The notes under the pieces: generated by a model
Database searches by the model: none
The model's input: only the letters and a program-made list of their open reading frames with translations
What the model was told of the DNA's origin: nothing
Made by a program: the position numbers and the translations under genes
Source of the DNA: Escherichia coli O157:H7
GTDB lineage: Bacteria; Pseudomonadota; Gammaproteobacteria; Enterobacterales; Enterobacteriaceae
Length of the DNA: 64,000 nucleotides
Direction: 5' to 3' (one strand)
Assembly (NCBI RefSeq): GCF_013167455.1
Contig: NZ_CP038328.1
Shown here: in pieces, positions 18,409 through 42,773 of the stretch
Layout of the letters: each line of letters begins with the position of its first letter
Position numbering within the stretch: position 1 is the stretch's first letter

Positions 18409-18572
18409 ACTTTTTCGTTGCTTTCGGTTTGTTTGATATCCCGTGGCAACGGCGGCATATATTACTGATTTCAGACTTGAGCGCAACAAAAATTTCGATG
18501 TAGATCACTCAACTGCTTATGATTCGCACGACACGACCAGAAATAATGCGACTTCTGGTCGTGTGTTATGCA

Positions 18573-19364
18573 TTACATCGCGTTCAGACGTTTTTGTGCC
18601 TGTTTAGCGCCATCAGTACCAGGGTATTTACTGATAACCTGCTGGTATACGGCTTTCGCTTTTGCGGTGTCACCTTTGTCCTGCATGATGACGCCGACTT
18701 TAAACATCGCATCTGCAGCCTTTGGTGACTTCGGATAGTTTTTCACTACCGAAGCAAAATAGTACGCCGCATCATCTTTTTTACCCTTGTTGTAGTTTAA
18801 CTGACCCAGCCAATAATTGGCGTTTGGCAGGTAAGTTGAATCAGGGTAATTTTTGATGAAATTCTGAAATGCCACCATTGCGTCATCCTGGCGGGATTTA
18901 TCCTGCACCAGCGCAATAGCTGCATTGTAATCCGTGTTTGCATCACCGCTTTTCACCGGCGCGCCAGCATTCGCAGTACCAGCATCAGCTGTCGGCGTCG
19001 TTGATGCCGCCGCACCGCTTTGATCACCGCTGGTTGATTGCGCCGCTGCACCACCGCTGCTGAGGCTGTCGATCTGCAACAGGATCTGCTTTTGCCGCTC
19101 CACGACCTGATTCAGTTGATACTGATTTTCCTGAATCTGACCACGCAGGGAATCAATATCGGATTGATTATCAGAGAGTTGTTGCTGGAGTTGGGTTAAA
19201 AGCTGGCTGTGAGCATTAGAAATACGCTCAAGTTGAATGACGCGGTCTTCGACCGAGCCTGAGCCGACACTACTGATTGGTGCCTGAGCAAAAGCGGCCC
19301 AGGGGGCCGCTATACCAACCAGTAACGACAGACTCAATAGTTGATGTCTGAAGTTACTGCTCAT
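18573..19364 (-). CDS. cpoB: cell-division coordinator CpoB (YbgF), TPR protein
   Basis: 263 aa ORF with signal peptide, coiled-coil and C-terminal TPR repeats; last gene of the tol-pal cluster. Confidence 0.88.
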   Translation of the reverse strand: MSSNFRHQLLSLSLLVGIAAPWAAFAQAPISSVGSGSVEDRVIQLERISNAHSQLLTQLQQQLSDNQSDIDSLRGQIQENQYQLNQVVERQKQILLQIDSLSSGGAAAQSTSGDQSGAAASTTPTADAGTANAGAPVKSGDANTDYNAAIALVQDKSRQDDAMVAFQNFIKNYPDSTYLPNANYWLGQLNYNKGKKDDAAYYFASVVKNYPKSPKAADAMFKVGVIMQDKGDTAKAKAVYQQVISKYPGTDGAKQAQKRLNAM

Positions 19365-27804: not shown

Positions 27805-28258
27805 AACCAACCAAATATGTTAATTATGTATAAACCATAGATCATTGGTGATTTTATTGTTAATTTATTGTGAAATATTTATGCAACACAATTATTACAA
27901 TGAAAAGGTATAGATAAAAAACCAGTATTTTATTTAACAGAACCGCCTTATCCACTTTTTATAATACCAATTGATTAGAGTAGCCAATTTGTTGCTATTT
28001 TACATAACATATTTTTATCAAAGTTAATTGATTGTTGCCTTTATGAGCACCGACCGTAAGCCCGTTATGTTATTGTTTCATTAGTAATAATCACTTAAAT
28101 GTATCGATGAAACAGGTATGACTTACCGGGAGTGATTGTTTCTGAGTGAACAGAGGCCACTTTCGCCTGATAAATGAAAAATGAGCGATTTTTGCAAGTT
28201 AGTTTTTCTATAGCCGAGTACGCTCAGCGCCTCGCTTGATTACAATGAGGTTGCTGCT

Positions 28259-29203
28259 ATGAGTCCTGATAATATCGGTTCGGCTGTCAATCGCTTCTCA
28301 GGTTGGCCATCTAATGATTCTCTAAAAACAGATAAAGAATCAATGACATCACCCGTGACTGTGCAGGTAATAAAGATGATTGCCGCCATCCTTGACCCAC
28401 ATCGGATAGTCGTTGGAATTGATACACTTTATACAACGCAGCGCGAAACATTTACCTCAGAGAGTCAACAGCTCATTGAATCAGCATTGCAAACACTTCA
28501 TGTGATGAATTTAAATAATCTGGAAACAAATCGCGATGAAGAAAGTCACTATCTGGCTTTTGAATATAACGTTGACACCTCTGACAGAATAACCGTTTCT
28601 GCTTATAATGAAAAAAAACCTGGCTGCTATGGCCAATGTCTTGTAATACAGGATGACGAAACAGACTTATTTAACCTGATAAAAATTAAAATTTTCGAAG
28701 CCAGGCATAATTATGTCGCTCAATTGATGAGCGATCCGGAATTTATGTTCAAATTCAGTTATAGCGCTCAACAAAATAGATTAGAACCTCATCTTCTGGT
28801 TCCCGCTTATTTCCCTCTAAAAACAAACGAACCGGTTACGCAAGAGGATGTACTGTTACTTTATCGTTTCTTTAAAATGAATGATGATTTTAATAAATTA
28901 ACATCAGATGAATACATGAGTATCCTGACACCTCTGATGAAGTGTGAGCGTAGCGTCCACGACAACAACAGGTATGTGACGGGCAAAGATACCCTTCTTC
29001 TGGACTATCCTCCTTCTGGTAACCAGATACATTTCCATGTTTTCCCTGACGAATCAGCAACACTAGTCCTTTATTTTTCAAACAATGACATTGAATGTTT
29101 CGTCTTTGAAAGAGATATTCCGAGCCAGTATCGCTTTTTCAAAATGTTTACCAATCTGGCACTGGTTATAGATCAGTTAACCGAAGCCAATAAAATACTT
29201 TAA
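28259..29203 (+). CDS. hypothetical protein, 314 aa, no recognisable family (AT-rich gene)
   Basis: 945-nt ORF in markedly AT-rich DNA where chance ORFs of this length are unlikely; no motif recognised by eye; start could alternatively be the internal ATG near 28345. Confidence 0.6.
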   Translation: MSPDNIGSAVNRFSGWPSNDSLKTDKESMTSPVTVQVIKMIAAILDPHRIVVGIDTLYTTQRETFTSESQQLIESALQTLHVMNLNNLETNRDEESHYLAFEYNVDTSDRITVSAYNEKKPGCYGQCLVIQDDETDLFNLIKIKIFEARHNYVAQLMSDPEFMFKFSYSAQQNRLEPHLLVPAYFPLKTNEPVTQEDVLLLYRFFKMNDDFNKLTSDEYMSILTPLMKCERSVHDNNRYVTGKDTLLLDYPPSGNQIHFHVFPDESATLVLYFSNNDIECFVFERDIPSQYRFFKMFTNLALVIDQLTEANKIL

Positions 29204-29284
29204 TTTTCTATATATCCCCTATGGCAAATATTGCTAAACAATGCCTGGGGATTAATTTTTATTACTCACGGAAAGATTTAAATA

Positions 29285-29707
29285 ATGATACCATCTCAGA
29301 TCTCTTTCAATACCCTTCCAGTCAATGCAACATACGCTTCAGAGACAACAGTTGACACACAAAAATTCTCTGACATCCTCTACTCAGCGGGGTGTTCCCT
29401 AAAGGATATGGCTTATCTGAGCAGATGTCTGGCATCAATACACCCGACTCTCGCCAAAAACATTTATGAAACAGAAAATCTCAGCGATCAAAAATTACTA
29501 CATATTGATTGCCGTAGTACAAATGAAATCAAGATAAATATCTTTTTTGGTCAACAACGAGAAGGATTAATTGAAATTAATTCTGACACAGTCATTTTTT
29601 CGATATTGTCTTCATTAATTGACTCCGCCATTTCTAAATTTCAACACCAAATCCCCGTTAACGGTTCAGTTAATCGTGAACTATTGTATGAGGATTATAC
29701 TGATTAA
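29285..29707 (+). CDS. hypothetical protein, 140 aa, no recognisable family (AT-rich gene)
   Basis: 423-nt ORF 81 bp downstream of the 314-aa ORF, same strand and similar composition; no signal peptide or motif recognised. Confidence 0.55.
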   Translation: MIPSQISFNTLPVNATYASETTVDTQKFSDILYSAGCSLKDMAYLSRCLASIHPTLAKNIYETENLSDQKLLHIDCRSTNEIKINIFFGQQREGLIEINSDTVIFSILSSLIDSAISKFQHQIPVNGSVNRELLYEDYTD

Positions 29708-30254
29708 ATCCACCCTGTCGCGAAAAATGGCCTGCGTTATTGCCAGACGTAATAAAACCTTTGATTAACGTTACTCATACTGATAGCACCTTCATGTACC
29801 TCTCTTTTTTACGAAAAATTAAAAGAGCTAACTAAGGTCATAATTCGCATGAATCATTAACCATTTGTTATTTTCAACATTATTTTTACATTAAGCAGAG
29901 ATGAATTGCAGTGAAATTCGACTTAAATCTTATGAAATGCATTTACTCATGGCTAAAACCACGTCACAAAAATGCAAATTAGAAGTAGATCACAATTATC
30001 TCAATACATTAAATCAAGTTAATTTTAAAAATTTAACACTCATGACATTAGTTGACATAACACACTGAATTAACATGGAAATTTAAAAACACACTTCAAA
30101 CAATCATTTCCCGAAAGACATTTTGAAAATAGATCAATTGCAACATTACGGTCAGATAAAGACACTCCTGTGATATTAAACCTGTGCCGTTATGAACGGC
30201 CATAAATACGACGTGTGTAACTTATTTTACTCTCTGTCTTACAAAGGATTACCC

Positions 30255-30704
30255 ATGAAGAAAGCAACACTTGTGATTGGCGTTATTGGCGCGGACTGCC
30301 ATGCAGTAGGCAATAAAGTTCTGGACCGCGTTTTTAGCAACCACGACTTCAGAGTCATTAATCTGGGCGTAATGGTCAGCCAGGACGAATATATTGATGC
30401 TGCCATTGAAACTGGCGCTGACGCGATTGTCGTCTCCTCTATCTATGGGCATGGCGATATCGACTGTCTGGGCATGCGCGAACGCTGCATCGAGCGTGGA
30501 CTGGGGGACATCCTGCTCTATGTGGGCGGTAACCTGGTGGTCGGAAAACATGACTTCGCTGACGTGGAAACCAAATTCAAAGAGATGGGATTTGATCGCG
30601 TCTTTGCCCCAAGTCATGACTTAGAAGATGTTTGCCAGCTGATGGCCCACGATATCAACCAACGTCATGACGTTGATACTCGTATTCTTGAAGAGGCTAT
30701 CTGA
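30255..30704 (+). CDS. mamA: glutamate mutase (methylaspartate mutase) S subunit, B12-binding
   Basis: ORF track 30192..30704; ATG at 30255 gives 149 aa [22 protein letters not shown] with the cobalamin-binding DxHxxG motif (DCHAVG); closely resembles clostridial GlmS/MutS. Confidence 0.88.
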
Positions 30705-32092
30705 TGCAAATCGTCTCTGTCGATATTGGATCGACGTGGACCAAAGCAGCCCTCTTTACCCGGGAGGGGGACGCGTTAACGTTGGTTAACCACGTACTGA
30801 CCCCAACCACCACCCATCATCTGGCGAAGGGGTTTTTCTCCAGCCTGAACCAGGTGTTAAACGTAGATAATGCCCTCCCCCTGTTAAACAGCGGTGAGGT
30901 TGCATTGAAGTATTCCTCCTCTGCCAAAGGTGGGCTGGCGGTTGCCGCAATGGGATTGGTGCCTTCTATCACCCTGGAAACCGCGAAAGTAACCGCTCAC
31001 TCTGCGGGTGCTAAAATTGCGCAATATTACGCCTACAAGCTGAACCGCCGTGATATCCAGGCACTGGAAGAAACGCAGCCCGATATTCTCTTGTTCACCG
31101 GCGGCACCGACGGCGGAGAAGAAAGCTACGGACTGAATAACGCCCGTGTGCTGGCAGAATCCAAACTCGACTGCGCCATTATTTATGCCGGAAACCGGGA
31201 TATTCAGGACGAGGTGCAGGAGATCCTCGGGCATAAAGACCTGACCATTGTCGACAACGTTCTGCCCGATCTTGACCATCCGAACCCTGTAGCTGCACGC
31301 CAGGCTATTTGCGACATATTCCTTAAACGCATCGTTAAAGGGAAAGGGCTGGATGTCATTGTTGATAAAACAGGCGAAGAACCAATGCCGACACCATGGA
31401 CGGTCTTTGAACTGGTCAAGGCAATCAGTAACGTCGATCACAGCTGGAAAGAGTTCATGCTGATCGACATGGGCGGCGCAACCACCGATGTTTATTCCGC
31501 CTGTGCCAACACGCTCTCGCCCGACACCGTTTTACACGGCGTACCGGAACCCTTCGTAAAACGGACGGTGGAAGGCGATCTGGGAATGCGCGTCTCGGCA
31601 GTGGTGGTTGGTGAAAGTGCGAAAGAGTTAGTCAATGTGAATTTTGCTCAGCAACCCGCACAGCTGGACGCTTTTTATCATTACCTCCGTCATCTAGTCG
31701 CTCATCCCGACTACTTACCCGCAAATGCAGAAGAGAAATATTTCGATACCGTCCTGGCCGGACTGTGTGTGGGTTATGCCACCGAAAGACATGCGGGCAC
31801 CAAAAAAGAGGTCTGCACCTGCGTCGGCAATGTCGATTTACAGATGGGACGTGACCTGACAACCGTGCGTAAAGTCGTCGGATCCGGCGGATGGCTCTCG
31901 CGTGCCAGTCAGTTCGATATGCATCACTGGTTGAAATACCGCGAGTTAAACGACGACGGTAAACGCATTCTCTTACCGACCGAATTTGAATATTACCGCG
32001 ATTCCCGGGGGCTATTACCACTGCTGGCAAACGTCGCCAGAGTCGATCCGCTGGCCGCCGCGCGCACCAGTATTCAATGCTTAACCCTATAA
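30704..32092 (+). CDS. glmL: glutamate mutase-associated protein GlmL/MutL (actin-like ATPase fold; proposed chaperone/reactivase)
   Basis: 462 aa ORF whose start overlaps the S-subunit stop by 1 nt; lies between S and E subunits as in clostridial operons. Confidence 0.7.
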   Translation: MQIVSVDIGSTWTKAALFTREGDALTLVNHVLTPTTTHHLAKGFFSSLNQVLNVDNALPLLNSGEVALKYSSSAKGGLAVAAMGLVPSITLETAKVTAHSAGAKIAQYYAYKLNRRDIQALEETQPDILLFTGGTDGGEESYGLNNARVLAESKLDCAIIYAGNRDIQDEVQEILGHKDLTIVDNVLPDLDHPNPVAARQAICDIFLKRIVKGKGLDVIVDKTGEEPMPTPWTVFELVKAISNVDHSWKEFMLIDMGGATTDVYSACANTLSPDTVLHGVPEPFVKRTVEGDLGMRVSAVVVGESAKELVNVNFAQQPAQLDAFYHYLRHLVAHPDYLPANAEEKYFDTVLAGLCVGYATERHAGTKKEVCTCVGNVDLQMGRDLTTVRKVVGSGGWLSRASQFDMHHWLKYRELNDDGKRILLPTEFEYYRDSRGLLPLLANVARVDPLAAARTSIQCLTL

Positions 32093-32110
32093 CAATTAAG
32101 GCTGCAATCA

Positions 32111-33556
32111 ATGGAACTTCGAAATAAGAAATTAACCCATGACGAATTCATGACCGAGCGGCAACAGGTACTGAAAACCTGGGAAACCGGCAAGGATGTT
32201 GAAAACTTTGAAGATGGCGTTAAATACCAACAAACCATCCCTGAGCATAAACGTTTCTCTCTTGCGCTGCTGAAAGCAGACAAGGAAGGTAAAACCCTTA
32301 GCCAACCGCGCGCAGGTGTGGCGCTGATGGACGAACACATCGAACTGCTGAAAACACTACAAGAAGAGTGCGATCTGCTGCCAAGCACCATCGATGCATA
32401 TACCCGTCTGAATCGGTACGAAGAAGCGGCTGTAGGGATTAAAAAATCCATCGAAGCCGGAACCTCTAAACTGAACGGTTTACCGGTAGTTAACCATGGT
32501 GTCGCAGCTTGCCGTCGCCTCACCGAAACCCTGCAAAAACCGCTACAGATCCGCCACGGCACGCCAGATGCGCGTCTGCTGGCTGAAATCTCAATGGCCA
32601 GCGGCTTTACCAGTTATGAAGGCGGTGGCATTTCCTACAACATTCCGTATGCCAAACGCGTAACGCTGGAAAAATCGATCCGCGACTGGCAGTACTGCGA
32701 CCGTTTAATGGGGATGTATGAAGAACACGGGATCCGCATCAACCGCGAACCGTTTGGCCCACTAACGGGTACGCTGATCCCGCCGTTTATCTCGCACTCT
32801 ATCGCGATAATCGAAGGCTTGCTGGCGCTGGAACAGGGTGTGAAATCTATCACCGTTGGTTATGGCCAGGTCGGCAGCCTGACGCAGGATGTTGCGGCGA
32901 TCCAGTCTCTGCGTGAACTTGCACACGAATATTTTCAGAGCTATGGCTATACCGACTATGAATTGAGTACCGTGTTTCACCAGTGGATGGGCGGCTTTCC
33001 GGAAGACGAATCGAAAGCGTTCGCTATTATCTCCTGGGGCGCAGCCGTCGCGGGGATGTCTGGTGCCACCAAAGTCATCACCAAAAGTCCGCACGAAGCC
33101 TGGGGTATCCCGACTGCCGCTGCCAACATTCAGGGGCTGAAAGCCTCCCGCCAAATGCTCAACATGGTCAATGAGCAGAAATTCCCGCCGTGCCCTGCGG
33201 TTGAACTGGAAATTGAACTGATTAAGAGCGAGGTTCGCGCGGTACTGAATAAAGTGTTCGAACTGGGTAATGGTGATATTGCGCGCGGAACGGTGCTGGC
33301 ATTTGAAGCGGGCGTACTGGATGTGCCGTTTGCGCCAGCCGCCTGCAACGCGGGCAAAATTCTTCCGGTCCGTGACAACACCGGCGCGATACGCGTACTG
33401 GAAGCCGGAGCCGTTCCATTGCCAAAAGATATTCTCGACCTCCACCACGATTACGTTGCGGAACGCGCACGCTGTGAAGGACGCCAACCGACATTCCAGA
33501 TGGTTGTAGATGACATCAATGCTGTATCCCACAGTAAATTAATAGGAAGACCATAA
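32111..33556 (+). CDS. glmE: glutamate mutase (methylaspartate mutase) E subunit, catalytic
   Basis: 481 aa ORF MELRNKKLTHDEF...QPRAGVALMDEHIELLK...LPSTIDAYTRLNRYEE, closely resembling clostridial GlmE. Confidence 0.9.
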   Translation: MELRNKKLTHDEFMTERQQVLKTWETGKDVENFEDGVKYQQTIPEHKRFSLALLKADKEGKTLSQPRAGVALMDEHIELLKTLQEECDLLPSTIDAYTRLNRYEEAAVGIKKSIEAGTSKLNGLPVVNHGVAACRRLTETLQKPLQIRHGTPDARLLAEISMASGFTSYEGGGISYNIPYAKRVTLEKSIRDWQYCDRLMGMYEEHGIRINREPFGPLTGTLIPPFISHSIAIIEGLLALEQGVKSITVGYGQVGSLTQDVAAIQSLRELAHEYFQSYGYTDYELSTVFHQWMGGFPEDESKAFAIISWGAAVAGMSGATKVITKSPHEAWGIPTAAANIQGLKASRQMLNMVNEQKFPPCPAVELEIELIKSEVRAVLNKVFELGNGDIARGTVLAFEAGVLDVPFAPAACNAGKILPVRDNTGAIRVLEAGAVPLPKDILDLHHDYVAERARCEGRQPTFQMVVDDINAVSHSKLIGRP

Positions 33557-34797
33557 TGAAAATAAAACAGGCTCTGTTCACCGCTGGCTACTCCTCATTC
33601 TATTTCGATGACCAGCAGGCGATAAAAAACGGAGCGGGTCATGACGGCTTTTTTTATACCGGGGAGCCAGTAACACAGGGGTTTAACGCCGTACGTCAGG
33701 CCGGGGAGTGCGTATCGGTACAGTTGATTCTGGAAAACGGCGCGGTCGCCGTAGGTGACTGTACTGCCGTACAGTATTCCGGGGCAGGCGGTCGCGATCC
33801 ACTGTTCCTCGCAGAGCACTTTATTCCGTTCCTCAACGACCATATCAAGCCATTACTGGTAGGCCGCGATGTGGATGCTTTCCTGCCGAATGCCCGTTTC
33901 TTCGACAAATTGCGTATTGACGGCAACTTGCTGCATACCGCCGTGCGCTACGGATTATCACAGGCGCTGCTTGATGCTACCGCGCTGGCAACCGGCCGTC
34001 TGAAAACTGAAGTGGTCTGTGATGAATGGCAGTTGCCACGCGTGGCGGAATCCATTCCATTATTTGGTCAGAGCGGCGACGATCGATATATCGCCGTCGA
34101 TAAGATGATCCTTAAAGGCATCGACGTGCTGCCCCATGCGCTGATTAATAACGTCGAAGAGAAGCTGGGCTTTAAAGGTGAAAAACTGCGCGAATATGTC
34201 CGCTGGTTGTCGGATCGCATTCTAAGCAAGCGCACCAGCGCACGCTACCACCCTACCCTGCACATCGATGTATACGGCACTATCGGTCTGATCTTCGATA
34301 TGGATCCGCTTCGCTGTGCGCAATACATCGCCAGCCTGGAAAAAGAAGCGCAAGGCCTGCCGCTCTACATCGAAGGGCCGGTCGATGCCGGTAACAAGCC
34401 CGATCAAATTCGCCTGCTGACCGCGATTACCAAAGAGCTGACGCGCCTCGGTTCCGGCGTGAAAATTGTGGCCGATGAATGGTGTAACACCTACCAGGAT
34501 ATTGTTGATTTCACTGATGCTGCCAGTTGTCACATGGTGCAAATCAAAACCCCGGATCTGGGCAGTATTCACAACATCGTCGATGCGGTTCTTTACTGCA
34601 ACAGCCACAGCATGGAAGCGTACCAGGGCGGCACCTGCAATGAAACTGATGTCAGTGCCCGCACCTGTGTCCACGTCGCCCTTGCCGCTCGCCCCATGCG
34701 TATGCTGGTAAAACCAGGGATGGGCTTTGACGAAGGCCTCGATATCGTCTTCAACGAAATGAATCGTACTATCGCGCTGTTGCAGGCTAAGGATTAA
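33556..34797 (+). CDS. 3-methylaspartate ammonia-lyase (beta-methylaspartase)
   Basis: 413 aa ORF MKIKQALFTAGYSSFYFDDQQAIKNGAGHDGFFYTGE...VQYSGAGGRDPLFLAE, enolase-superfamily MAL; start overlaps the glmE stop by 1 nt. Confidence 0.9.
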   Translation: MKIKQALFTAGYSSFYFDDQQAIKNGAGHDGFFYTGEPVTQGFNAVRQAGECVSVQLILENGAVAVGDCTAVQYSGAGGRDPLFLAEHFIPFLNDHIKPLLVGRDVDAFLPNARFFDKLRIDGNLLHTAVRYGLSQALLDATALATGRLKTEVVCDEWQLPRVAESIPLFGQSGDDRYIAVDKMILKGIDVLPHALINNVEEKLGFKGEKLREYVRWLSDRILSKRTSARYHPTLHIDVYGTIGLIFDMDPLRCAQYIASLEKEAQGLPLYIEGPVDAGNKPDQIRLLTAITKELTRLGSGVKIVADEWCNTYQDIVDFTDAASCHMVQIKTPDLGSIHNIVDAVLYCNSHSMEAYQGGTCNETDVSARTCVHVALAARPMRMLVKPGMGFDEGLDIVFNEMNRTIALLQAKD

Positions 34798-34800
34798 CAA

Positions 34801-36171
34801 ATGGCTCGTTCTTTTAAAGTCTTATCGCCAACGGCAATCCTCGGGTATGGATTCCCGGAAGAGAGCTTCCGCAAAGCGATGGCAGAATCGCCCGATCTGA
34901 TCGCCGTTGATGCAGGCTCTTCCGATCCAGGCCCCCACTACCTCGGGGCAGGCAAACCGTTTACCGATCGCGCAGGGGTCAAGCGCGATCTGCGCTATAT
35001 GATCACCGCAGGCGTGCAAAATAATATACCGGTGGTGATCGGAACGGCTGGCGGTTCTGGTGCCGCACCACACCTGGAGTGGTGCCGAGAAATAATTCAT
35101 GAGATTGCCCGGGAAGAGCACCTCTCGTTCTCGATGGCGTTGATCCCGGCAGACGTTGACAAAGCCATCGTCCACCAGGCGCTGGATAACGGCAAAATCA
35201 CGGCGCTGGATTTTGTCCCGCCGTTAACCCACGACGCGATTGACGAAAGTACGTATATCGTCGCGCAAATGGGCATCGAACCCTTCCAGCGGGCGCTGAA
35301 AGAACGCGCGCAAGTGGTGCTGGGCGGGCGCGCTTACGACCCGGCCTGCTTTGCTGCGCTCCCGATCATGCAAGGCTTTGATGAAGGTCTGGCGCTGCAT
35401 TGTGGGAAAATCCTTGAATGCGCGGCAATCGCCGCAACGCCCGGCTCAGGCTCTGACTGTGCGATGGGCATCATTGATGACAACGGCTTTACGCTGAAAA
35501 CATTTAATCCGAAGCGTAAATTTACCGAAACGTCAGCAGCTGCACACACACTGTATGAGAAATCCGATCCCTACTTCCTGCCAGGACCTGGCGGCGTGTT
35601 GAACCTGAAAGGCTGCACATTTAAAGCAGTAAATGACGGCGAAGTCTACGTCAGCGGTTCTAAGCATGAAGAAACGCCGTATGCCCTGAAACTGGAAGGT
35701 GCACGACGGGTGGGCTTCCGCTGTCTGACCATCGCCGGAACGCGCGACCCGATTATGATCGCCGGGATCGATAAAATCATCGATGAAGTCAAAACCAGCG
35801 TTTCGCGTAACCTGTCGCTCGACGATGACAGCATTCGCATCAATTTCCACCTGTACGGCAAAAACGGGGTGATGGGAGACCATGAACCGATGCAAACTGC
35901 CGGGCATGAGCTGGGGATTGTCCTTGATGTAGTTGCACCGACCCAGGAAATTGCCAACAGCGTTTGCTCGCTGGTGCGCTCTACCATGCTGCACTACGGC
36001 TATGAAAACCGCATCGCTACCGCAGGTAATCTGGCGTTCCCGTTCTCCCCTTCTGATATCCAGGGCGGGCCGGTATACGAATTTTCCATATATCACCTGA
36101 TTGAAGCCAACGACGCTCTGCGTTTTGATTTCCATATTGAACAGGTGACGCCAGAAGGAGTTCAGGCATGA
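34801..36171 (+). CDS. uncharacterised conserved protein, 456 aa (possibly DUF1446/AtuA-like; assignment from memory, unverified)
   Basis: ORF begins 3 nt after the MAL stop; Gly-rich segment GTAGGSGAAPH; no characterised catalytic motif recognised. Confidence 0.6.
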   Translation: MARSFKVLSPTAILGYGFPEESFRKAMAESPDLIAVDAGSSDPGPHYLGAGKPFTDRAGVKRDLRYMITAGVQNNIPVVIGTAGGSGAAPHLEWCREIIHEIAREEHLSFSMALIPADVDKAIVHQALDNGKITALDFVPPLTHDAIDESTYIVAQMGIEPFQRALKERAQVVLGGRAYDPACFAALPIMQGFDEGLALHCGKILECAAIAATPGSGSDCAMGIIDDNGFTLKTFNPKRKFTETSAAAHTLYEKSDPYFLPGPGGVLNLKGCTFKAVNDGEVYVSGSKHEETPYALKLEGARRVGFRCLTIAGTRDPIMIAGIDKIIDEVKTSVSRNLSLDDDSIRINFHLYGKNGVMGDHEPMQTAGHELGIVLDVVAPTQEIANSVCSLVRSTMLHYGYENRIATAGNLAFPFSPSDIQGGPVYEFSIYHLIEANDALRFDFHIEQVTPEGVQA

Positions 36172-36485
36172 AACAGTCAATTGTCTCACTGGCGCAAGTC
36201 ATTCGTTCGAAAAATGCCGGACCTTACGAACTGGTTTTAGATATTTTATTTAAAACGAAAGAAAACTATGAGCGAGTTAAATCATCAGGGCAATTAACCC
36301 CAGAACTGATTGCACGCTTATATCATGTTGAACCTGACTTTATTCATCGTATTGTCTGGTTTGATCCTTCTAACGCAGTAAAAATCGTCATGCCACGAGA
36401 TATTATCTCCGGGAATGTAGGTGACAATGATGTCTATGGTGCACAGCAACATGCACCTTTATTAAATATGAGTTTCGATTTGTAA
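36168..36485 (+). CDS. uncharacterised small protein, 105 aa (possibly DUF4387-like; unverified)
   Basis: ORF overlapping the preceding gene by 4 nt (ATGA), indicating translational coupling. Confidence 0.55.
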   Translation: MKQSIVSLAQVIRSKNAGPYELVLDILFKTKENYERVKSSGQLTPELIARLYHVEPDFIHRIVWFDPSNAVKIVMPRDIISGNVGDNDVYGAQQHAPLLNMSFDL

Positions 36486-36568
36486 AAATCCGAATACTTT
36501 TAGCCAACTGACATCCCGTCACTTATTGCAGTTCAACACTTCAGCTATTTGTAAGGTTGTAATAGCAG

Positions 36569-36600
36569 GTAGATGCCTGAATCTCTATTCAGGCATCTAC
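36569..36600 (+). terminator. Perfect 14-bp inverted repeat (terminator or operator candidate)
   Basis: GTAGATGCCTGAAT-CTCT-ATTCAGGCATCTAC between the 105-aa ORF and the transporter gene; only a weak T-run follows. Confidence 0.45.
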
Positions 36601-36645
36601 TTCTCCTGATTCTGATTTATCGCCGTGCACCTGATGGAGGAAAAA

Positions 36646-37926
36646 ATGAAGAAAATAAGTTTAACCACGATGATTCTTTTGGCGCTGGTACTTGGAATGA
36701 TTATCGGCGTAGTGCTCAATAACACTGCTTCACCGGAAACCGCAAAACTCTATGCGCAAGAAATATCGATATTCACGACGATTTTCTTACGACTGATAAA
36801 AATGATTATCGCTCCGTTAGTGGTCTCTACCCTGGTGGTAGGTATTGCTAAAATGGGCGATGCCAAAGCCCTTGGTCGTATTTTTTCTAAAACACTCTTT
36901 TTATTTATTTGCGCCTCATTGCTGTCAATTGCCTTAGGCTTGATAACGGTAAATTTCTTCATGCCAGGTACAGGAATTAATTTTGTTGCACACGGTGCCG
37001 AAACCACCGGAGTGGTCGCGGCAGAACCCTTTACGCTAAAAGTATTTATTTCGCATGCTTTCCCCACCAGCATTGTCGATGCCATGGCGCACAATGAAAT
37101 TTTGCAAATCGTGGTGTTCTCAATTTTCCTCGGCTGTAGCCTGACGGCGATTGGCGAGAAAGGCAGCGCCATCGTTCACGCCTTAGATTCGCTGGCACAT
37201 GCCATGTTAAAGCTCACTGGCTACGTCATGCTCTTCGCTCCCCTGACCGTATTCGCTGCTATTTCAGCATTGATTGCTGAACGAGGACTGGCAGTTATGG
37301 TGAGCGCCGGGATCTTTATGGGTGAATTTTATTTCACCATGTTATTACTTTGGGTACTGCTTATCGGTCTGGCCATCGTTTATGTCGGCCCCTGCATCAG
37401 ACGCCTGACCCGCGCCCTTTCGGAACCCGCCCTGCTGGCATTTACCACATCCAGTTCTGAAGCGGCTTTTCCGGGAACGCTTGAAAAACTGGAGCAATTT
37501 GGCGTTTCCCCCAAAATTGCCAGCTTTGTCTTACCCATTGGCTACTCATTTAATCTCGTTGGATCAATGGCCTACTGCTCCTTCGCCACAGTTTTCATCG
37601 CCCAGGCCTGCAATATCCATTTATCCATCGGTGAGCAAATCACCATGCTGTTGATCCTGATGTTGACCTCGAAAGGAATGGCTGGCGTACCACGCGCCTC
37701 AATGGTGGTTATCGCCGCCACGCTCAACCAGTTCAATATTCCGGAAGCGGGGCTGATCTTGCTGATGGGCGTTGATCCGTTCCTTGATATGGGGCGTTCC
37801 GCGACAAACGTCATGAGCAACGCAATGGGCGCTGCGATGGTGAGTCGGTGGGAAGGCGAACATTTCGGCGAGGGCTGTCGGGGTAAAGCATTAAAACCCA
37901 ATGAATCGAACGTTGCTCTGCCCTGA
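36646..37926 (+). CDS. dicarboxylate/amino-acid:cation symporter (GltP/DctA family), probable glutamate or C4/C5-dicarboxylate uptake
   Basis: ORF track 36625..37926; ATG at 36646 is preceded by GGAGG; multi-TM protein MKKISLTTMILLALVLGMIIGVVLNN. Confidence 0.75.
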   Translation: MKKISLTTMILLALVLGMIIGVVLNNTASPETAKLYAQEISIFTTIFLRLIKMIIAPLVVSTLVVGIAKMGDAKALGRIFSKTLFLFICASLLSIALGLITVNFFMPGTGINFVAHGAETTGVVAAEPFTLKVFISHAFPTSIVDAMAHNEILQIVVFSIFLGCSLTAIGEKGSAIVHALDSLAHAMLKLTGYVMLFAPLTVFAAISALIAERGLAVMVSAGIFMGEFYFTMLLLWVLLIGLAIVYVGPCIRRLTRALSEPALLAFTTSSSEAAFPGTLEKLEQFGVSPKIASFVLPIGYSFNLVGSMAYCSFATVFIAQACNIHLSIGEQITMLLILMLTSKGMAGVPRASMVVIAATLNQFNIPEAGLILLMGVDPFLDMGRSATNVMSNAMGAAMVSRWEGEHFGEGCRGKALKPNESNVALP

Positions 37927-38033
37927 GGGGGATCTTAAGCAATCAGAAGCCAATGACTACGCATTTTTATAAGCCGGATCATGAAGTTAGACGGCAATTA
38001 AGTAACACTAACGTTTAAGGTGAAAAGTGAAAT

Positions 38034-39686
38034 ATGTCCAAACCATTTATCTGGCAAGAACCGTTTCTACAAAATAAAGACGGTACAGAATATACATTAA
38101 TTAGCGATCAACATATTACAGTAACGGAATTAGACGGCGAAGAAGTGATAAAAATCGCTCCTGAAGCATTAACGCTGCTTGCCCGGCAGGCATTTTATGA
38201 AGCCTCTTTTTTCTTACGTTCCGCTCATTTGCAACAGGTCGCCAGCATTCTTAACGATCAGCAGGCCAGCAGTAATGATAAATACGTTGCGTTGCAGTTA
38301 TTACGTAATGCTGAAGTCTCAGCAAAAGGGGTATTACCCAACTGTCAGGATACCGGCACCGCAACTATTGTTGCCAGTAAAGGGCAACAGATATGGACCG
38401 GAGGTAACGACGCCGAAGCCTTAAGTAAAGGCATTTACAGTACTTTCCAGGAAAATAATCTGCGCTTTTCACAAAATGCGCCGCTGGATATGTATACCGA
38501 AGTCAATACGCAAACCAATCTCCCGGCGCAGATTGATATCAGCGCTGTCGCTGGTGATGAGTACCATTTTCTCTGTGTTAATAAAGGGGGCGGCTCCGCC
38601 AATAAAGCCGCGCTTTATCAGGAAACCAAATCCTTATTGCAACCAGAAAAACTGACCGCATTTTTAATCGAAAAAATGAAATCGCTGGGCACCGCTGCCT
38701 GCCCGCCTTACCACATCGCCTTTGTCGTCGGAGGGCTTTCAGCCGATCAAACCTTAAAAATTGCCAAGCTGGCCTCAACGAAATATTACGACAATTTGCC
38801 CACCAGCGGAAACGAGCAGGGACAAGCATTCCGTGATATTGAGCTGGAAAAAGTGTTGCTCGAGGCCAGTCAGCAATTTGGTATTGGTGCGCAATTTGGG
38901 GGTAAATATTTCGCTCATGATATTCGCGTCATTCGTCTGCCGCGTCACGGTGGCTCTTGCCCGATAGCTATGGCGCTCTCCTGTTCTGCCGATCGCAATA
39001 TCAAAGCAAAAATTAACAAACACGGTATCTGGCTGGAAAAACTCGAACACAATCCGGGGCAATATATTCCAGCCTCACTGCGGGAAGAAAATCACGCGCA
39101 ACATGTACAACTGGATCTAAACCGTCCGTTGCGTGACGTGATGCAGGATCTCGCCAGATTACCAGTAGGCACCCGCGTGTCGTTAAGTGGTCCCATCGTA
39201 GTGGCGCGCGATATCGCCCACGCCAAAATAAAAGCGCGGCTGGATAGCGGCGAACCGATGCCGGAGTACCTGAAGCATCATATTGTCTATTACGCTGGCC
39301 CGGCGAAAACACCGGAGAACATGGCCTGCGGTTCACTGGGTCCAACCACGGGCGGTCGAATGGACGGTTATATCGATACCTTCCAGGCGGCTGGCGGCAG
39401 TCTAGTGATGTTATCGAAAGGTAACCGCAGCCAGCAGGTCACCGATGCCTGTCACAAACATGGCGGCTTCAATCTGGGAAGTATTGGCGGTGCAGCTGCG
39501 TTACTGGCGCAAGAATATGTCAAAAGTCTGCGTTGCCTGGAATACCCGGAGCTGGGTATGGAAGCGGTGTGGATGATGGAAGTGGAAAATCTGCCCGCAT
39601 TCATCCTGGTAGATGATAAAGGCAATAATTTCTTTAGTCAGTTTGAGCAGCAACACCGCTGCGCCAGTTGCCCTGCGGGACATTAA
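38034..39686 (+). CDS. fumD: class I (Fe-S) fumarate hydratase paralogue, FumD-type mesaconase/fumarase
   Basis: 550 aa ORF closely similar to FumA/FumB over its length ([38 protein letters not shown]), located in the glutamate mutase cluster. Confidence 0.85.
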
Positions 39687-39695
39687 GGAAAATGA

Positions 39696-40298
39696 ATGGA
39701 AGCGCGAATTTCAACTGAACGGCATGTGCAGCGCCAACAGAAATTGAAGGAACAGGTCGATACGCGCGTCGCGGCGGCGATAGAGAAAAAAGGGATCTTG
39801 ATTGTTTTCACCGGCAACGGCAAAGGGAAATCCACTGCCGCGTTTGGTACTGTGACGCGCGCGGTGGGTCATGGCAAAACGGTGGGGGTTGCGCAGTACA
39901 TCAAGGGGCAATGGGACAACGGCGAATACAACCTTCTCCAGCCGCTGGGGGTTGAGTTTCATATTATGGGAACCGGTTTTACCTGGGAGACACAGAACCG
40001 GCAAGCGGATATCGACGCGGCGAAAGAGGTCTGGTCGGAAAGCAAACGGATGCTGGCTGACAAGCGTTACGACTTAGTGGTGCTTGATGAGCTGACCTAT
40101 ATGCTGGCTTACCATTATCTGGATACCGAAGAAGTGATCGCTTCTCTGCAAAACCGCCCGGCACAACAAAGTGTCATTGTCACCGGACGCGGTTGCCACA
40201 GTCAGATATTAAAAATGGCAGATACGGTCAGCGAAATCCGCCCCGTCAAACATGCTTTTGATAACGGCATTCAGGCCCAGCCGGGTATCGACTGGTAA
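39696..40298 (+). CDS. cob(I)alamin adenosyltransferase, BtuR/CobA family
   Basis: 200 aa ORF with P-loop FTGNGKGKSTAAFG and strong resemblance to E. coli BtuR. Confidence 0.85.
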   Translation: MEARISTERHVQRQQKLKEQVDTRVAAAIEKKGILIVFTGNGKGKSTAAFGTVTRAVGHGKTVGVAQYIKGQWDNGEYNLLQPLGVEFHIMGTGFTWETQNRQADIDAAKEVWSESKRMLADKRYDLVVLDELTYMLAYHYLDTEEVIASLQNRPAQQSVIVTGRGCHSQILKMADTVSEIRPVKHAFDNGIQAQPGIDW

Positions 40299-40301
40299 TA
40301 A

Positions 40302-40334
40302 CTGCGCCTGGCATCCCGCCAGGCGCAGGTTTTA
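40302..40334. terminator. Bidirectional hairpin between convergent adenosyltransferase and LysR genes
   Basis: CTGCGCCTGG-loop-CCAGGCGCAG followed by GTTTTA; overlaps the LysR stop codon. Confidence 0.5.
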
Positions 40335-41237
40335 CATCTCCTGCGGTACGACCGATTTCGCCAGCAACCATTCACGAAATTGCTGCAAGTGCGGTGAGTC
40401 AGACTTCTCTTCCTGCCACGTCATAATAAAACGATTACCGGTACGAATAGGCACATCACAGGGAATCACCATATCGCCACTATCCAAATCATGTTGAATA
40501 GCGAAACGTGGTAACAGCGCCACGCCGAGATTAGAGCGCACGGCGGCAATCAGCATTGAAAGCAAATCGAAACGTGGTCCGTTGTTGACCAGCGGACTGC
40601 TAACGCCAGATAAAGCAAACCACTCTTCCCAGCCAGTAATACGGGTGCTTTGATGCAGAAGTGGTAACTCAGTAAGCAGTTCTGCCACTGACAGTTTTTG
40701 ATCGGACATTGCAAGCAAACTGCCGCTGCATACCGGCAAAATCTCCTCTTCAAAGAGATATTCTACTTCCGCCCAGGGCGCGCAAAAATTTTCGCGCATA
40801 ATGACAGCATCGTACTCCCGATTAAGAAAATCGCCGTTATTAGCTAAAGAATGAATATTAACAATAATATCGGGATGTAACTTTGTGAATTCATGTAAAT
40901 TTGGGATTAACCAGTGGGTACTAAAAGTAGGATTAACGGCAAGTTCAATAACCTGAACCGTAGGCTGCCAGGTCATAATGGTATTGGTATCGCGTTCCAG
41001 CTTATTTAATGTTTCTTTTACTATCCCCAGGTAATACTTCCCTGTATCATTAAGAAAAATGCGTTTTTTAGAGTGTGAAAATAACGGAGTACGTAAAAAT
41101 TCCTCCAGCGCACTTACTTGTCTGAATACTGCACTTTGGGTTAACGCTAACTCCTCTGCCGCTCTGGTATAACTTTCATGACGTGCGACGACCTCAAAAG
41201 TCACCAGCAGTTCCGTTTTAGGTATTTTCCCTCGCAT
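40332..41237 (-). CDS. LysR-family transcriptional regulator
   Basis: 301 aa ORF with N-terminal HTH (LLVTFEVVARHESYTRAAEELALTQSAVFRQVSALE) and C-terminal substrate-binding domain. Confidence 0.85.
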   Translation of the reverse strand: MRGKIPKTELLVTFEVVARHESYTRAAEELALTQSAVFRQVSALEEFLRTPLFSHSKKRIFLNDTGKYYLGIVKETLNKLERDTNTIMTWQPTVQVIELAVNPTFSTHWLIPNLHEFTKLHPDIIVNIHSLANNGDFLNREYDAVIMRENFCAPWAEVEYLFEEEILPVCSGSLLAMSDQKLSVAELLTELPLLHQSTRITGWEEWFALSGVSSPLVNNGPRFDLLSMLIAAVRSNLGVALLPRFAIQHDLDSGDMVIPCDVPIRTGNRFIMTWQEEKSDSPHLQQFREWLLAKSVVPQEM

Positions 41238-41802
41238 AATGCCGTCCCTTAAAAATAGTTTAAACCATCAAAAATACATTACTTATTACGAAGTAATGGT
41301 AACCAAAGCAGCAATAAATAATTTATAAGAATCATGATTGACATTTATAAACCAGTAAGGCTGGCGTGACAAATATCTTAATCAGATAATAATAATCCGA
41401 AAAGCACAGCGCCTTTCGAATTATCCGGAATCACATTAAGTGAAAATTATTAAATTGATATCATTTATCATATCTGTGGATATTATGATAAACAATCAAC
41501 AAAGATTTTATTTTTGATTTATAGCATATCCCTCTAAGAATTTTTGCGATGCTGCAATATCCGGGGTAAAGACCCGATCCTGGCTGACAAATGGCACGAC
41601 TTGACGAAAAGCGGTGAACATCGCTTTTGTTGATTTACTTAACGCTACGGTCAAACGCTGGGAAGCCAGTGCATCAGGTAACGATTCGAAATTCGCCGTC
41701 GTTCTTATTCGTGGCTTGCGGTCGGTTGCGGCAATCCACAGTGGCTGTGGTCATGCAGTCAAGCCTGCAGTCAGATTTCGACCGTGGTTAACCGTTTAAG
41801 GC

Positions 41803-41903
41803 ATAAAAAAGGCCATCATACGATGGCCAACCATGTCGAAACCGACAGCCCTTCGCCATTCCTGTAGAGGGAAGCGGCGAGGGCTATTTCTTATTACAGA
41901 TAT
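41803..41903 (-). ncRNA. sdhX: SdhX (RybD) sRNA region, sucD 3'UTR ending at an intrinsic terminator
   Basis: 3'UTR of sucD on the minus strand ends in GGCCATCGTATGATGGCC plus TTTTTT and contains ACAGGAATGGCGAAGGGCTGTCGGTTTCGACATGG, which I recall as the SdhX region; exact 5' end not determined. Confidence 0.55.
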
Positions 41904-42773
41904 TTATTTCAGAACAGTTTTCAGTGCTTCACCGATATCCGCCAGGCTGCGAACGGTTTTCACGCCTGCGGCTTCCAGAGCAGCGAATTTCTCATCCGCA
42001 GTCCCTTTCCCACCGGCAATGATGGCACCCGCGTGGCCCATACGTTTGCCTTTCGGCGCAGTCACACCAGCGATGTAACCCACAACTGGCTTGGTAACGT
42101 GCTCTTTGATGTACGCAGCTGCTTCTTCTTCAGCGCTACCGCCGATCTCACCGATCATCACGATCGCTTCGGTCTGCGGATCTTTTTCGAACATTTCGAG
42201 AATGTCGATAAAGTTAGAGCCAGGGATCGGGTCACCGCCGATACCGACACAGGTCGACTGACCGAAACCGTAATCCGTGGTCTGTTTAACCGCTTCATAG
42301 GTCAGTGTACCGGAACGGGAAACGATACCCACTTTACCCGGTTTGTGAATGTGACCAGGCTGAATACCGATTTTGCATTCACCCGGAGTGATAACGCCTG
42401 GGCAGTTCGGGCCGATCATACGAACGCCTGCTTCATCCAGCTTCACTTTCACGGTCAGCATATCCAGCGTCGGGATGCCTTCAGTGATGGTGATAATCAG
42501 TTTGATGCCTGCGTCGATGGCTTCCAGAATGGAGTCTTTGCAGAACGGTGCTGGTACGTAGATAACAGAAGCGGTAGCGCCAGTAGCAGCAACAGCTTCA
42601 CGCACGGTGTTGAACACCGGCAGGCCGAGGTGGGTAGTACCGCCTTTACCTGGGGTTACGCCGCCAACCATTTTAGTGCCGTATGCAATGGCCTGTTCTG
42701 AGTGGAAAGTCCCCTGGCTACCGGTAAAGCCCTGGCAGATAACCTTGGTGTTTTTATCAATTAAAATGGACAT
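41904..42773 (-). CDS. sucD: succinyl-CoA synthetase alpha subunit
   Basis: 289 aa [48 protein letters not shown]. Confidence 0.92.

Follow-up and report, generated by a model that had tools for sequence, protein, structure and literature searches.

An RNA stem-loop, probably not a regulator site or a promoter mark, between the enzyme genes and the symporter gene of the Escherichia coli O157:H7 methylaspartate cluster

In a 64,000-nucleotide (nt) stretch of the Escherichia coli O157:H7 genome (contig NZ_CP038328.1; the whole of this stretch is hereafter referred to as the window), a perfect inverted repeat lies at positions 36569–36600, between a DUF4387 gene and a symporter gene of the methylaspartate cluster. 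On the sense strand the repeat encodes a stable RNA stem-loop of 14–15 bp, with a folding energy of about −21 to −23 kcal/mol, and the gap in which it is located has no recognizable promoter. Comparison with the orthologous gaps indicates that the pairing at this position is kept by compensatory change across the Enterobacteriaceae, with the selection apparently acting on the sense RNA. The hairpin is most probably neither a binding site for a LysR-type regulator nor the mark of an independent promoter. The interpretation that we prefer, with a probability of about 0.5, is that it is an ordinary punctuation mark within an operon, which we infer to act as a decay barrier or a leaky stop on one transcript.

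The repeat finder and the raw sequence agree on two 14-bp arms that are 100% complementary, as had been claimed in a first reading made from the sequence alone (the sequence-only reading). When loops of 3–10 nt are considered, every other perfect inverted repeat in the window is shorter, and arms of at least 12 bp were found in none of 40 first-order Markov simulations of the window. Six of the 14 pairs are G-C, and the base of the stem is AU-rich. In the RNA the stem gains one G·U pair (36568/36601), and the folding energy is −20.9 kcal/mol for 36569–36600 and −22.5 kcal/mol for 36568–36601; the fold of the whole 160-nt gap has a z-score of −2.63 relative to shuffled sequences. The hairpin is positioned 83 nt past the stop of the DUF4387 gene (36485) and 45 nt before the ATG of the symporter, so that it does separate the enzyme genes from the symporter–fumD–cobO block, as was originally proposed. 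The symporter unit itself had been placed at 36486–37926. Its family assignment holds, as described below, but its start does not: 36486 is the first base of the gap, and the true start codon is the ATG at 36646, according to RefSeq and the orthologues, and not the GTG at 36625 in the mechanical list of open reading frames. Both this GTG and an ATG at 36634 are in frame with the symporter in E. coli (ATG GAG GAA AAA ATG). In the 27 non-Escherichia leaders of a Citrobacter-type alignment (A2), the ATG equivalent to the latter runs into GAG TAA or GAG TGA, and thus a short N-terminal extension of the symporter would be possible only in Escherichia.

The evidence for the function of the pairing comes from other genomes. 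A scan of one genome per species provided 55 loci whose symporters are 74–100% identical to that of the window. In all but a few of them the symporter gene directly follows the DUF4387 gene, and the gap between the two genes ranges from 58 to 359 nt. Gaps of about 165 nt that can be aligned with the E. coli gap were found in most of the Citrobacter, Enterobacter, Lelliottia, Pluralibacter, Buttiauxella, and Salmonella arizonae genomes. When 29 distinct gaps were aligned with MAFFT without being fitted to any structure (alignment A1), RNAalifold placed a helix exactly at the position of the repeat. Two-sided changes occur in 13 of the 14 pairs of this helix, and 93.5% of the cells are paired; in a model-fitted alignment (A3), all 14 pairs show two-sided changes. 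As a control, the 3′ partner was slid by 1–3 columns, which left 25–43% paired over the whole structure in A1 and 25–44% when both alignments are taken, as compared with 93–94% for the helix. The arms of Citrobacter amalonaticus, AGCGTGCGCCTGAGC-N10-GCTCAGGCGCACGCT, may be compared with GTAGATGCCTGAAT-N4-ATTCAGGCATCTAC in E. coli, and the loop among the orthologues measures anywhere from 4 to 11 nt. In length the E. coli stem equals the Citrobacter stems and exceeds that of Escherichia sp. MOD1, the nearest relative.

The substitutions also distinguish between the two strands. In the 29 orthologous gaps, G·U wobbles number 43 and A·C mismatches 8 when the + strand is read, and for 26 of the 29 the predicted fold of the + strand RNA is the more stable one, with a mean advantage of 5.6 kcal/mol over the − strand. 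Beyond the alignable gaps, the 58-nt gaps of Enterobacter ENT03 and Yokenella consist essentially of a hairpin and a ribosome-binding site, and Morganella, Yersinia, and Hafnia carry a hairpin of unrelated sequence 25–45 nt past the DUF4387 stop. A hairpin at this junction therefore appears to be a recurring solution, reached with different sequences.

According to the preferred interpretation, transcription from upstream would cover the cluster in one long RNA. Part of the polymerases would be halted at the hairpin, with the interrupted U-run UUCUCCUGAUU serving as a weak and leaky stop, and once the U/A-rich stretch immediately downstream has been cut, the hairpin may also block 3′-to-5′ exonucleases. 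As a result, the enzyme segment would end up more abundant or longer-lived than the symporter–fumD–cobO segment. The suggestion that the repeat is a terminator or an attenuator is upheld in part. A role at the RNA level is supported by the conserved sense-strand helix, whereas a classical terminator is supported only weakly. A terminator scan that needs five U residues in eight positions does not call the repeat, whose tail UUCUCCUG has four in the first eight; over the longer tail UUCUCCUGAUUCUGAUUU, U occupies 9 of the first 20 positions. The discriminant formula of d'Aubenton-Carafa (1990) gives a score, d, that serves here for ranking only: it is −10 for the repeat, and three clear terminators of the window have values of +3 to +13.

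Outside Escherichia, the hairpin is one part of a larger leader motif. The non-Escherichia gaps contain three helices, P1, P2, and P3, and the repeat corresponds to P3. P1 is the upstream hairpin, which begins about 23 nt past the DUF4387 stop in the orthologues, has compensatory changes in seven of its nine pairs, and carries a conserved loop, GCUGUAUC. P2 is a long-range helix (GGUUGG/CCAGCC); its pairing reaches 97%, and one of its pairs is U·G, U-A, or C-G depending on the sequence. P3 is nested in P2 and is flanked by the conserved unpaired segments UCACAACAG and ACCCUAC. All 27 non-Escherichia orthologues have the identical Shine-Dalgarno block CCGATGGAG, and the two Escherichia sequences share GATGGAG. 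A covariance model was built from the 27 non-Escherichia gaps, for which the effective number of independent sequences is 1.6. Its sole match in the window is at 36481–36651 (28.7 bits; expectation value about 1e-4, such values being rough). In the E. coli copy all of P3 pairs, 41 unrelated bases stand in place of P1, and four of the six P2 pairs are broken; by this comparison, the E. coli gap is a degenerate copy of the leader, in which P3 is the only surviving helix. Escherichia sp. MOD1 retains part of P1 and has a shortened P3. The motif is present in Citrobacter, Enterobacter, Salmonella arizonae, Buttiauxella, and Trabulsiella (for instance at L026:5832-6006, L006:5832-6006, and L029:5835-6003 in our numbering of loci). 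No family of Rfam 15 matches at E ≤ 1 either in the window from 29000 to 42000 or in the gaps of four orthologous loci (L026, L029, L050, and L034), and no homology was seen when the leaders of both symporter paralogues of Morganella were compared.

Several observations weigh against the hairpin being a mark on the transcript of the upstream genes. One is that in Trabulsiella odontotermitis a stand-alone symporter gene, at a locus where no other cluster gene was detected, is still preceded by the whole motif (94.9 bits), although there is no upstream operon to stabilize. Another is that the distance from the helix to the ATG is constant (41–45 nt), as would be expected of a leader belonging to the symporter. 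In addition, P3 is absent altogether in one lineage (loci L018, L028, and L031) that has kept P1 and P2. As to a leaky stop, the tails of P3 in Citrobacter, Enterobacter, and Salmonella (ACCCUAC...) have no U-tract and score d = −33 to −62; since the orthologues lack the U-tract, termination cannot be the conserved function of the helix in most genera. The hairpin is also polymorphic within E. coli, where the perfect form occurs in only 610 of 1124 records, and two of the four sampled single-nucleotide polymorphisms (SNPs) in the stem, C36594G and A36595T, break one pair each, leaving about −18.4 kcal/mol. Finally, little weight attaches to the absence of a mapped transcription start in the gap, described below, since the cluster was hardly expressed under the conditions used.

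The first two of these observations together favor a role as the symporter's own leader. Under this alternative, P3 would be one helix of a structured 5′ leader that adjusts the synthesis of the symporter to a ligand, a protein, or Rho independently of the upstream genes, and the E. coli copy would be degenerate. The covariation in P1 and P3, the high pairing of P2, the conserved unpaired segments and P1 loop, and the absence of the motif from Rfam all fit such a leader, and in Trabulsiella the motif follows a 340-nt upstream region with 28–34% G+C and several promoter-like sites. However, no expression platform is visible: the accessibility of the Shine-Dalgarno sequence and the AUG in the motif-bearing leaders has z-scores of −0.6 to +1 relative to shuffled sequences, and no terminator follows P3 in most genera. 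The motif is, moreover, confined to one family, with the small effective number of sequences given above, and P1 and P2 are lost in E. coli, so that such a switch cannot work there in the same way. We therefore regard this alternative as possible but unlikely for the E. coli hairpin. A bolder form of it, which we hold with even less confidence, is that the hairpin is what remains of a structured cis-regulatory RNA, not described before, that accompanies a distinct subfamily of acidic-amino-acid symporters in the Enterobacteriaceae; this RNA would sense a metabolite or a protein of the glutamate–methylaspartate pathway and gate the synthesis of the transporter from a polycistronic mRNA, being intact in Citrobacter, Enterobacter, Salmonella arizonae, and Trabulsiella and half-decayed in E. 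coli. Sequestration of the Shine-Dalgarno sequence or the start codon was considered separately and rejected: the UUCAU:AUGAA helix proposed by RNAalifold never covaries, and the predicted accessibility equals that obtained with shuffled upstream sequence.

The variation within E. coli bears on another alternative, that the hairpin is a functionless relic in a cryptic cluster, either simply persisting or kept perfect by hairpin-templated repair at the DNA level. In the 44 nt around the hairpin, a single base departs from the window in 482 of the 1124 records, and two or three bases do so in 32. Among seven sampled variants, the stem changes A36573G and A36591G keep the pairing (both give G·U on the + strand), and C36583T and C36585T fall in the loop. 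The first three variants had suggested that all stem SNPs in E. coli preserve the pairing, an idea that was abandoned when the two pair-breaking transversions mentioned above appeared in four more genomes. An unbiased sample of the 160-nt gap yielded six SNPs, of which four lie inside the 32-nt hairpin; this suggests that the palindrome is a mutational hot spot, with A-to-G in the stem and C-to-T in the loop among the changes. In E. coli strain 100416 (L002:3249-4070), IS1 has taken the place of the DUF4387 gene and of the adjoining 90 nt of the gap; the endpoint of the deletion lies inside the 5′ arm, the match resumes at window position 36576, and half of the hairpin is thereby lost. Because of these variants, selection on the E. 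coli copy is not obvious, and the case for function rests on the comparison between genera. The decay of P1 and P2, and the report that methylaspartase activity was undetectable in one O157:H7 strain, in which no induction was achieved (PMC4682846), are likewise in line with a relic. Nevertheless, the perfect form is the majority allele, the single-mismatch variants still fold at about −18 kcal/mol, and the E. coli stem has not become shorter than the Citrobacter stems while exceeding that of Escherichia sp. MOD1. A mere relic thus seems rather improbable.

Next in order comes the possibility of an efficient intrinsic terminator followed by an independent symporter promoter, that is, a true second transcription unit, as the sequence-only reading had suggested. 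Besides the strong stem and the number of U residues in the tail, the equivalent gap of Yersinia alsatica speaks for it: the junction hairpin there is followed by six U residues and forms a canonical terminator (d = +10), the only positive score among the orthologues. AT-rich spacers of 90–270 nt also precede the symporter in Yersinia, Hafnia, and Morganella. The E. coli gap, however, offers little support, since the repeat is not called by the terminator scan and scores negatively, and the short interval from the hairpin to the ATG is without promoter-like hexamers. No sigma-70-like site was found on the + strand from 36100 to 36700, and the 58-nt gaps of Enterobacter ENT03 and Yokenella leave no room for a promoter. 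Since the covarying P1 precedes P3 in the orthologues, the gap is most simply taken to be transcribed from further upstream. In a Cappable-seq study of strain EDL933, covering four media and two growth phases (eight conditions), the canonical, internal, and intergenic tables contain no start in the interval that separates the LysR gene from the hypothetical gene upstream of glmS (PMC10469882). In the canonical table, the entry for the LysR gene (841944, +) is followed at once by that for the hypothetical gene located two genes before glmS (855177, −; about window position 28017, +), and the internal table has no sense-strand start in fumD, the symporter gene, the DUF4387 gene, or the AtuA gene (PMC10469882). 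We consider a separate unit of this kind quite improbable, and the proposal of a second transcription unit is not sustained.

The same tables provide several side observations. The sole sense start for the region, at about 28017 (+), is located about 240 nt upstream of a hypothetical gene at 28259–29203, which, together with another at 29285–29707, precedes glmS. Antisense starts are found in fumD at about 38081 and 38776 (in nearly all conditions) and at the AtuA gene at about 35613 and 34783, all on the − strand; transcription from the one at about 38081 would read through the symporter gene (PMC10469882).

The remaining alternative, a binding palindrome for a dimeric regulator such as the GcvA-like LysR protein of the cluster, can draw on the perfect dyad, the core GCCTGA...TCAGGC common to many orthologues, and the presence of the LysR gene, but is highly improbable: the half-site spacing varies between 4 and 11 nt, the outer arms are fully replaced with their complementarity kept, the wobble pairs form on the + strand only, hairpins of unrelated sequence occupy the same junction in other genera, and no promoter or mapped start adjoins the repeat in 36100–36700 on which a regulator could act. 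A protein-binding palindrome (for example, a LysR-type T-N11-A box) needs a fixed spacing and an equal constraint on both strands, and hence the reading as a DNA operator is unsupported. Other identities were also rejected. The repeat is not a dispersed element, such as a repetitive extragenic palindrome (REP), a bacterial interspersed mosaic element (BIME), or a miniature inverted-repeat transposable element, as each of 1123 E. coli genomes carries it at a single locus; the apparent two places per genome reflect the palindrome matching itself on both strands. Nor does a leader peptide or a small open reading frame cover the hairpin: only unconserved frames of 27–49 amino acids without a convincing ribosome-binding site exist there, and as the hairpin sequence varies between genera, no peptide is conserved.

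As regards the protein encoded downstream, its assignment to the sodium:dicarboxylate symporter family was confirmed (Pfam PF00375, E = 3e-102; 343 bits against a cut-off of 27.9). It falls below the cut-offs of both the GltP equivalog NCBIfam NF008440 (300 bits against 638) and the DctA NCBIfam (313 bits against 513), and it is 38% identical to the K-12 GltP and 34% identical to DctA. It forms a distinct SDF/DAACS subfamily, equivalent to neither GltP nor DctA. The earlier statement that the substrate cannot be told from the sequence can be narrowed. In the D-M-G-R motif the symporter keeps the Asp and the Arg (LDMGR), as in GltP and the solved aspartate transporters, whereas DctA has MSEAR, with Ser in place of Asp; in GltPh these Asp and Arg residues bind the amino group and the side-chain carboxylate of the substrate. 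Since the GltP-type Asp and Arg are kept, an acidic amino acid (glutamate, aspartate, or 3-methylaspartate) is a more likely substrate than mesaconate or citramalate. Two other positions depart from the known transporters. In the NMDGT-type motif the Asp is replaced by Val (FNLVGS) in the aligned orthologues (E. coli, both Morganella paralogues, and Yersinia); GltP and DctA have FNLDGS/T, and the Asp is kept in the 52–55% identical homologues of Chitinophaga and Zymomonas. The tip of hairpin 2 (HP2) is GVPRAS, with an Arg, as compared with GVPGVS in GltP. The Asp-to-Val replacement and the HP2 Arg may reflect an altered ion coupling. In summary of the likeness, the symporter shares the fold family and the Asp and Arg of the D-M-G-R motif with the aspartate transporters GltP, GltPh, GltTk, and 9bgz, and differs from GltP in its moderate identity, its NCBIfam score below the cut-off, the Val, and the Arg.

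The features of the locus are collected in Table 1. It is the published cluster for the conversion of glutamate via 3-methylaspartate and mesaconate to citramalate (Kronen and Berg 2015, PMC4682846), with the + strand order glmS–glmL–glmE–mal–AtuA–DUF4387–symporter–fumD–cobO, and it is situated between cydA and sucD. The window agrees with many E. coli O157:H7 chromosomes at 100% identity, and the cluster was found in 1123 of 5426 complete E. coli genomes (about one fifth) and in most O157:H7 genomes. In the published work FumD is biochemically characterized and the transporter is labelled GltP (Fig. 5 of PMC4682846), and the operon structure, the intergenic hairpin, and the leader motif are not mentioned there (Kronen and Berg 2015). 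The locus tag of the symporter gene is ECs0758, as deduced from the run from sucD to ECs0755 and from FumD being ECs0757. No mention of the locus tags of this cluster was found in the full-text literature, the locus is not listed in the published supplementary tables on Hfq-CLIP (crosslinking and immunoprecipitation) and on small genes, and nothing bearing on function was found in the literature on DUF4387 and DUF1446.

Table 1. Positions of the hairpin, its surroundings, and the cluster genes in the window
Feature	Position	Strand	Remarks
glmS	30255–30704	+	followed by glmL, glmE, and the methylaspartate ammonia-lyase gene (mal)
AtuA/DUF1446 protein gene	34801–36171	+	
DUF4387 gene	36168–36485	+	last gene of the enzyme block; Pfam PF14330, E = 2.6e-39; RefSeq annotation
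Intercistronic gap between the DUF4387 and symporter genes	36486–36645	+	160 nt
5′ arm GTAGATGCCTGAAT	36569–36582	+	repeat finder; 5′ strand of helix P3
Loop CTCT	36583–36586	+	TTTT in some E. coli
3′ arm ATTCAGGCATCTAC	36587–36600	+	repeat finder; 3′ strand of helix P3
Pyrimidine-rich tail TTCTCCTGATTCTGATTTATCG	36601–36622	+	interrupted U-tract; read from the sequence; nT = 2.4, d = −10
Shine-Dalgarno sequence of the symporter gene, GGAGG	36636–36640	+	read from the sequence
Symporter gene	36646–37926	+	426 amino acids; Pfam PF00375
fumD (mesaconase/fumarase)	38034–39686	+	NCBIfam NF011921, 1287 bits
cobO (corrinoid adenosyltransferase)	39696–40298	+	end of the block; Pfam PF02572
GC-rich perfect 11-bp hairpin followed by GTTTTAC	40302–40328	+	top match of the terminator scan; d = +2.9
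LysR-type gene (GcvA-like)	40332–41237	−	convergent

The hairpin at 40302–40328 is likely to be the true end of the operon, facing the LysR gene; being 3 nt from both the cobO and the LysR genes, it is probably a bidirectional terminator shared by the two. The spacing between the symporter gene and fumD (37927–38033) is 107 nt in E. coli, while in most other genera it is about 1.1–1.4 kb with an extra gene; this gene is also missing in Escherichia sp. MOD1, one C. amalonaticus strain, and S. arizonae. A glutaminase (GlsA) is included among the cluster genes in the legend to Fig. 5 of PMC4682846. Within the last codons of the DUF4387 gene, at 36438–36457, there is a terminator-like hairpin GGTGCACAGCAACATGCACC followed by TTTATTAAAT, and its arms (GGTGCA...TGCACC) resemble the hairpin that follows the DUF4387 gene in Yersinia and Hafnia. 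The second-longest perfect inverted repeat of the window, with 12-bp arms, a 10-nt loop, and no T-run, is located at 18531–18564 and adjoins the 3′ end of a − strand gene of 263 amino acids at 18573–19364 (cpoB by position).

Stem-loops between cistrons are known to set differential expression; examples are the malE–malF REP hairpins of E. coli and those in the puf operon of Rhodobacter. As in these systems, the hairpin studied here is stable, lies between co-oriented cistrons without a promoter, and has a segment for soluble proteins upstream and a membrane-protein gene downstream, with the structure conserved over the sequence. It differs from the REP and BIME elements in being single-copy and part of a longer, locus-specific leader, and a role in mRNA stability would be assigned to it by analogy. 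With Rho-independent terminators and leaky attenuators it shares a stem-loop followed by a pyrimidine- or U-rich stretch, but the U-tract is interrupted (and missing in most orthologues) and the base of the stem is AU-rich. With riboswitch-like transporter leaders it has in common, in other genera, covarying helices around conserved unpaired segments and the linkage to a transporter; unlike them, it has no Rfam match and no platform or ligand that can be named, and the E. coli copy is without two of the three helices. The hairpin is thus a new example of a familiar type of intercistronic RNA signal. The sequence-only reading was right in kind, in that an RNA signal lies between the two halves of the cluster, and wrong about the separate unit and the regulator palindrome.

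For the biology of the cluster, this means that the symporter, fumD, and cobO genes are probably co-transcribed with the enzyme genes, and that their regulation should be sought upstream of glmS and at the RNA level; a second promoter or an operator in the gap is an unlikely place to look for control. The E. coli hairpin alone is an ordinary feature. The more interesting by-product is the leader in the related genera, which is a testable candidate for a new regulatory RNA.

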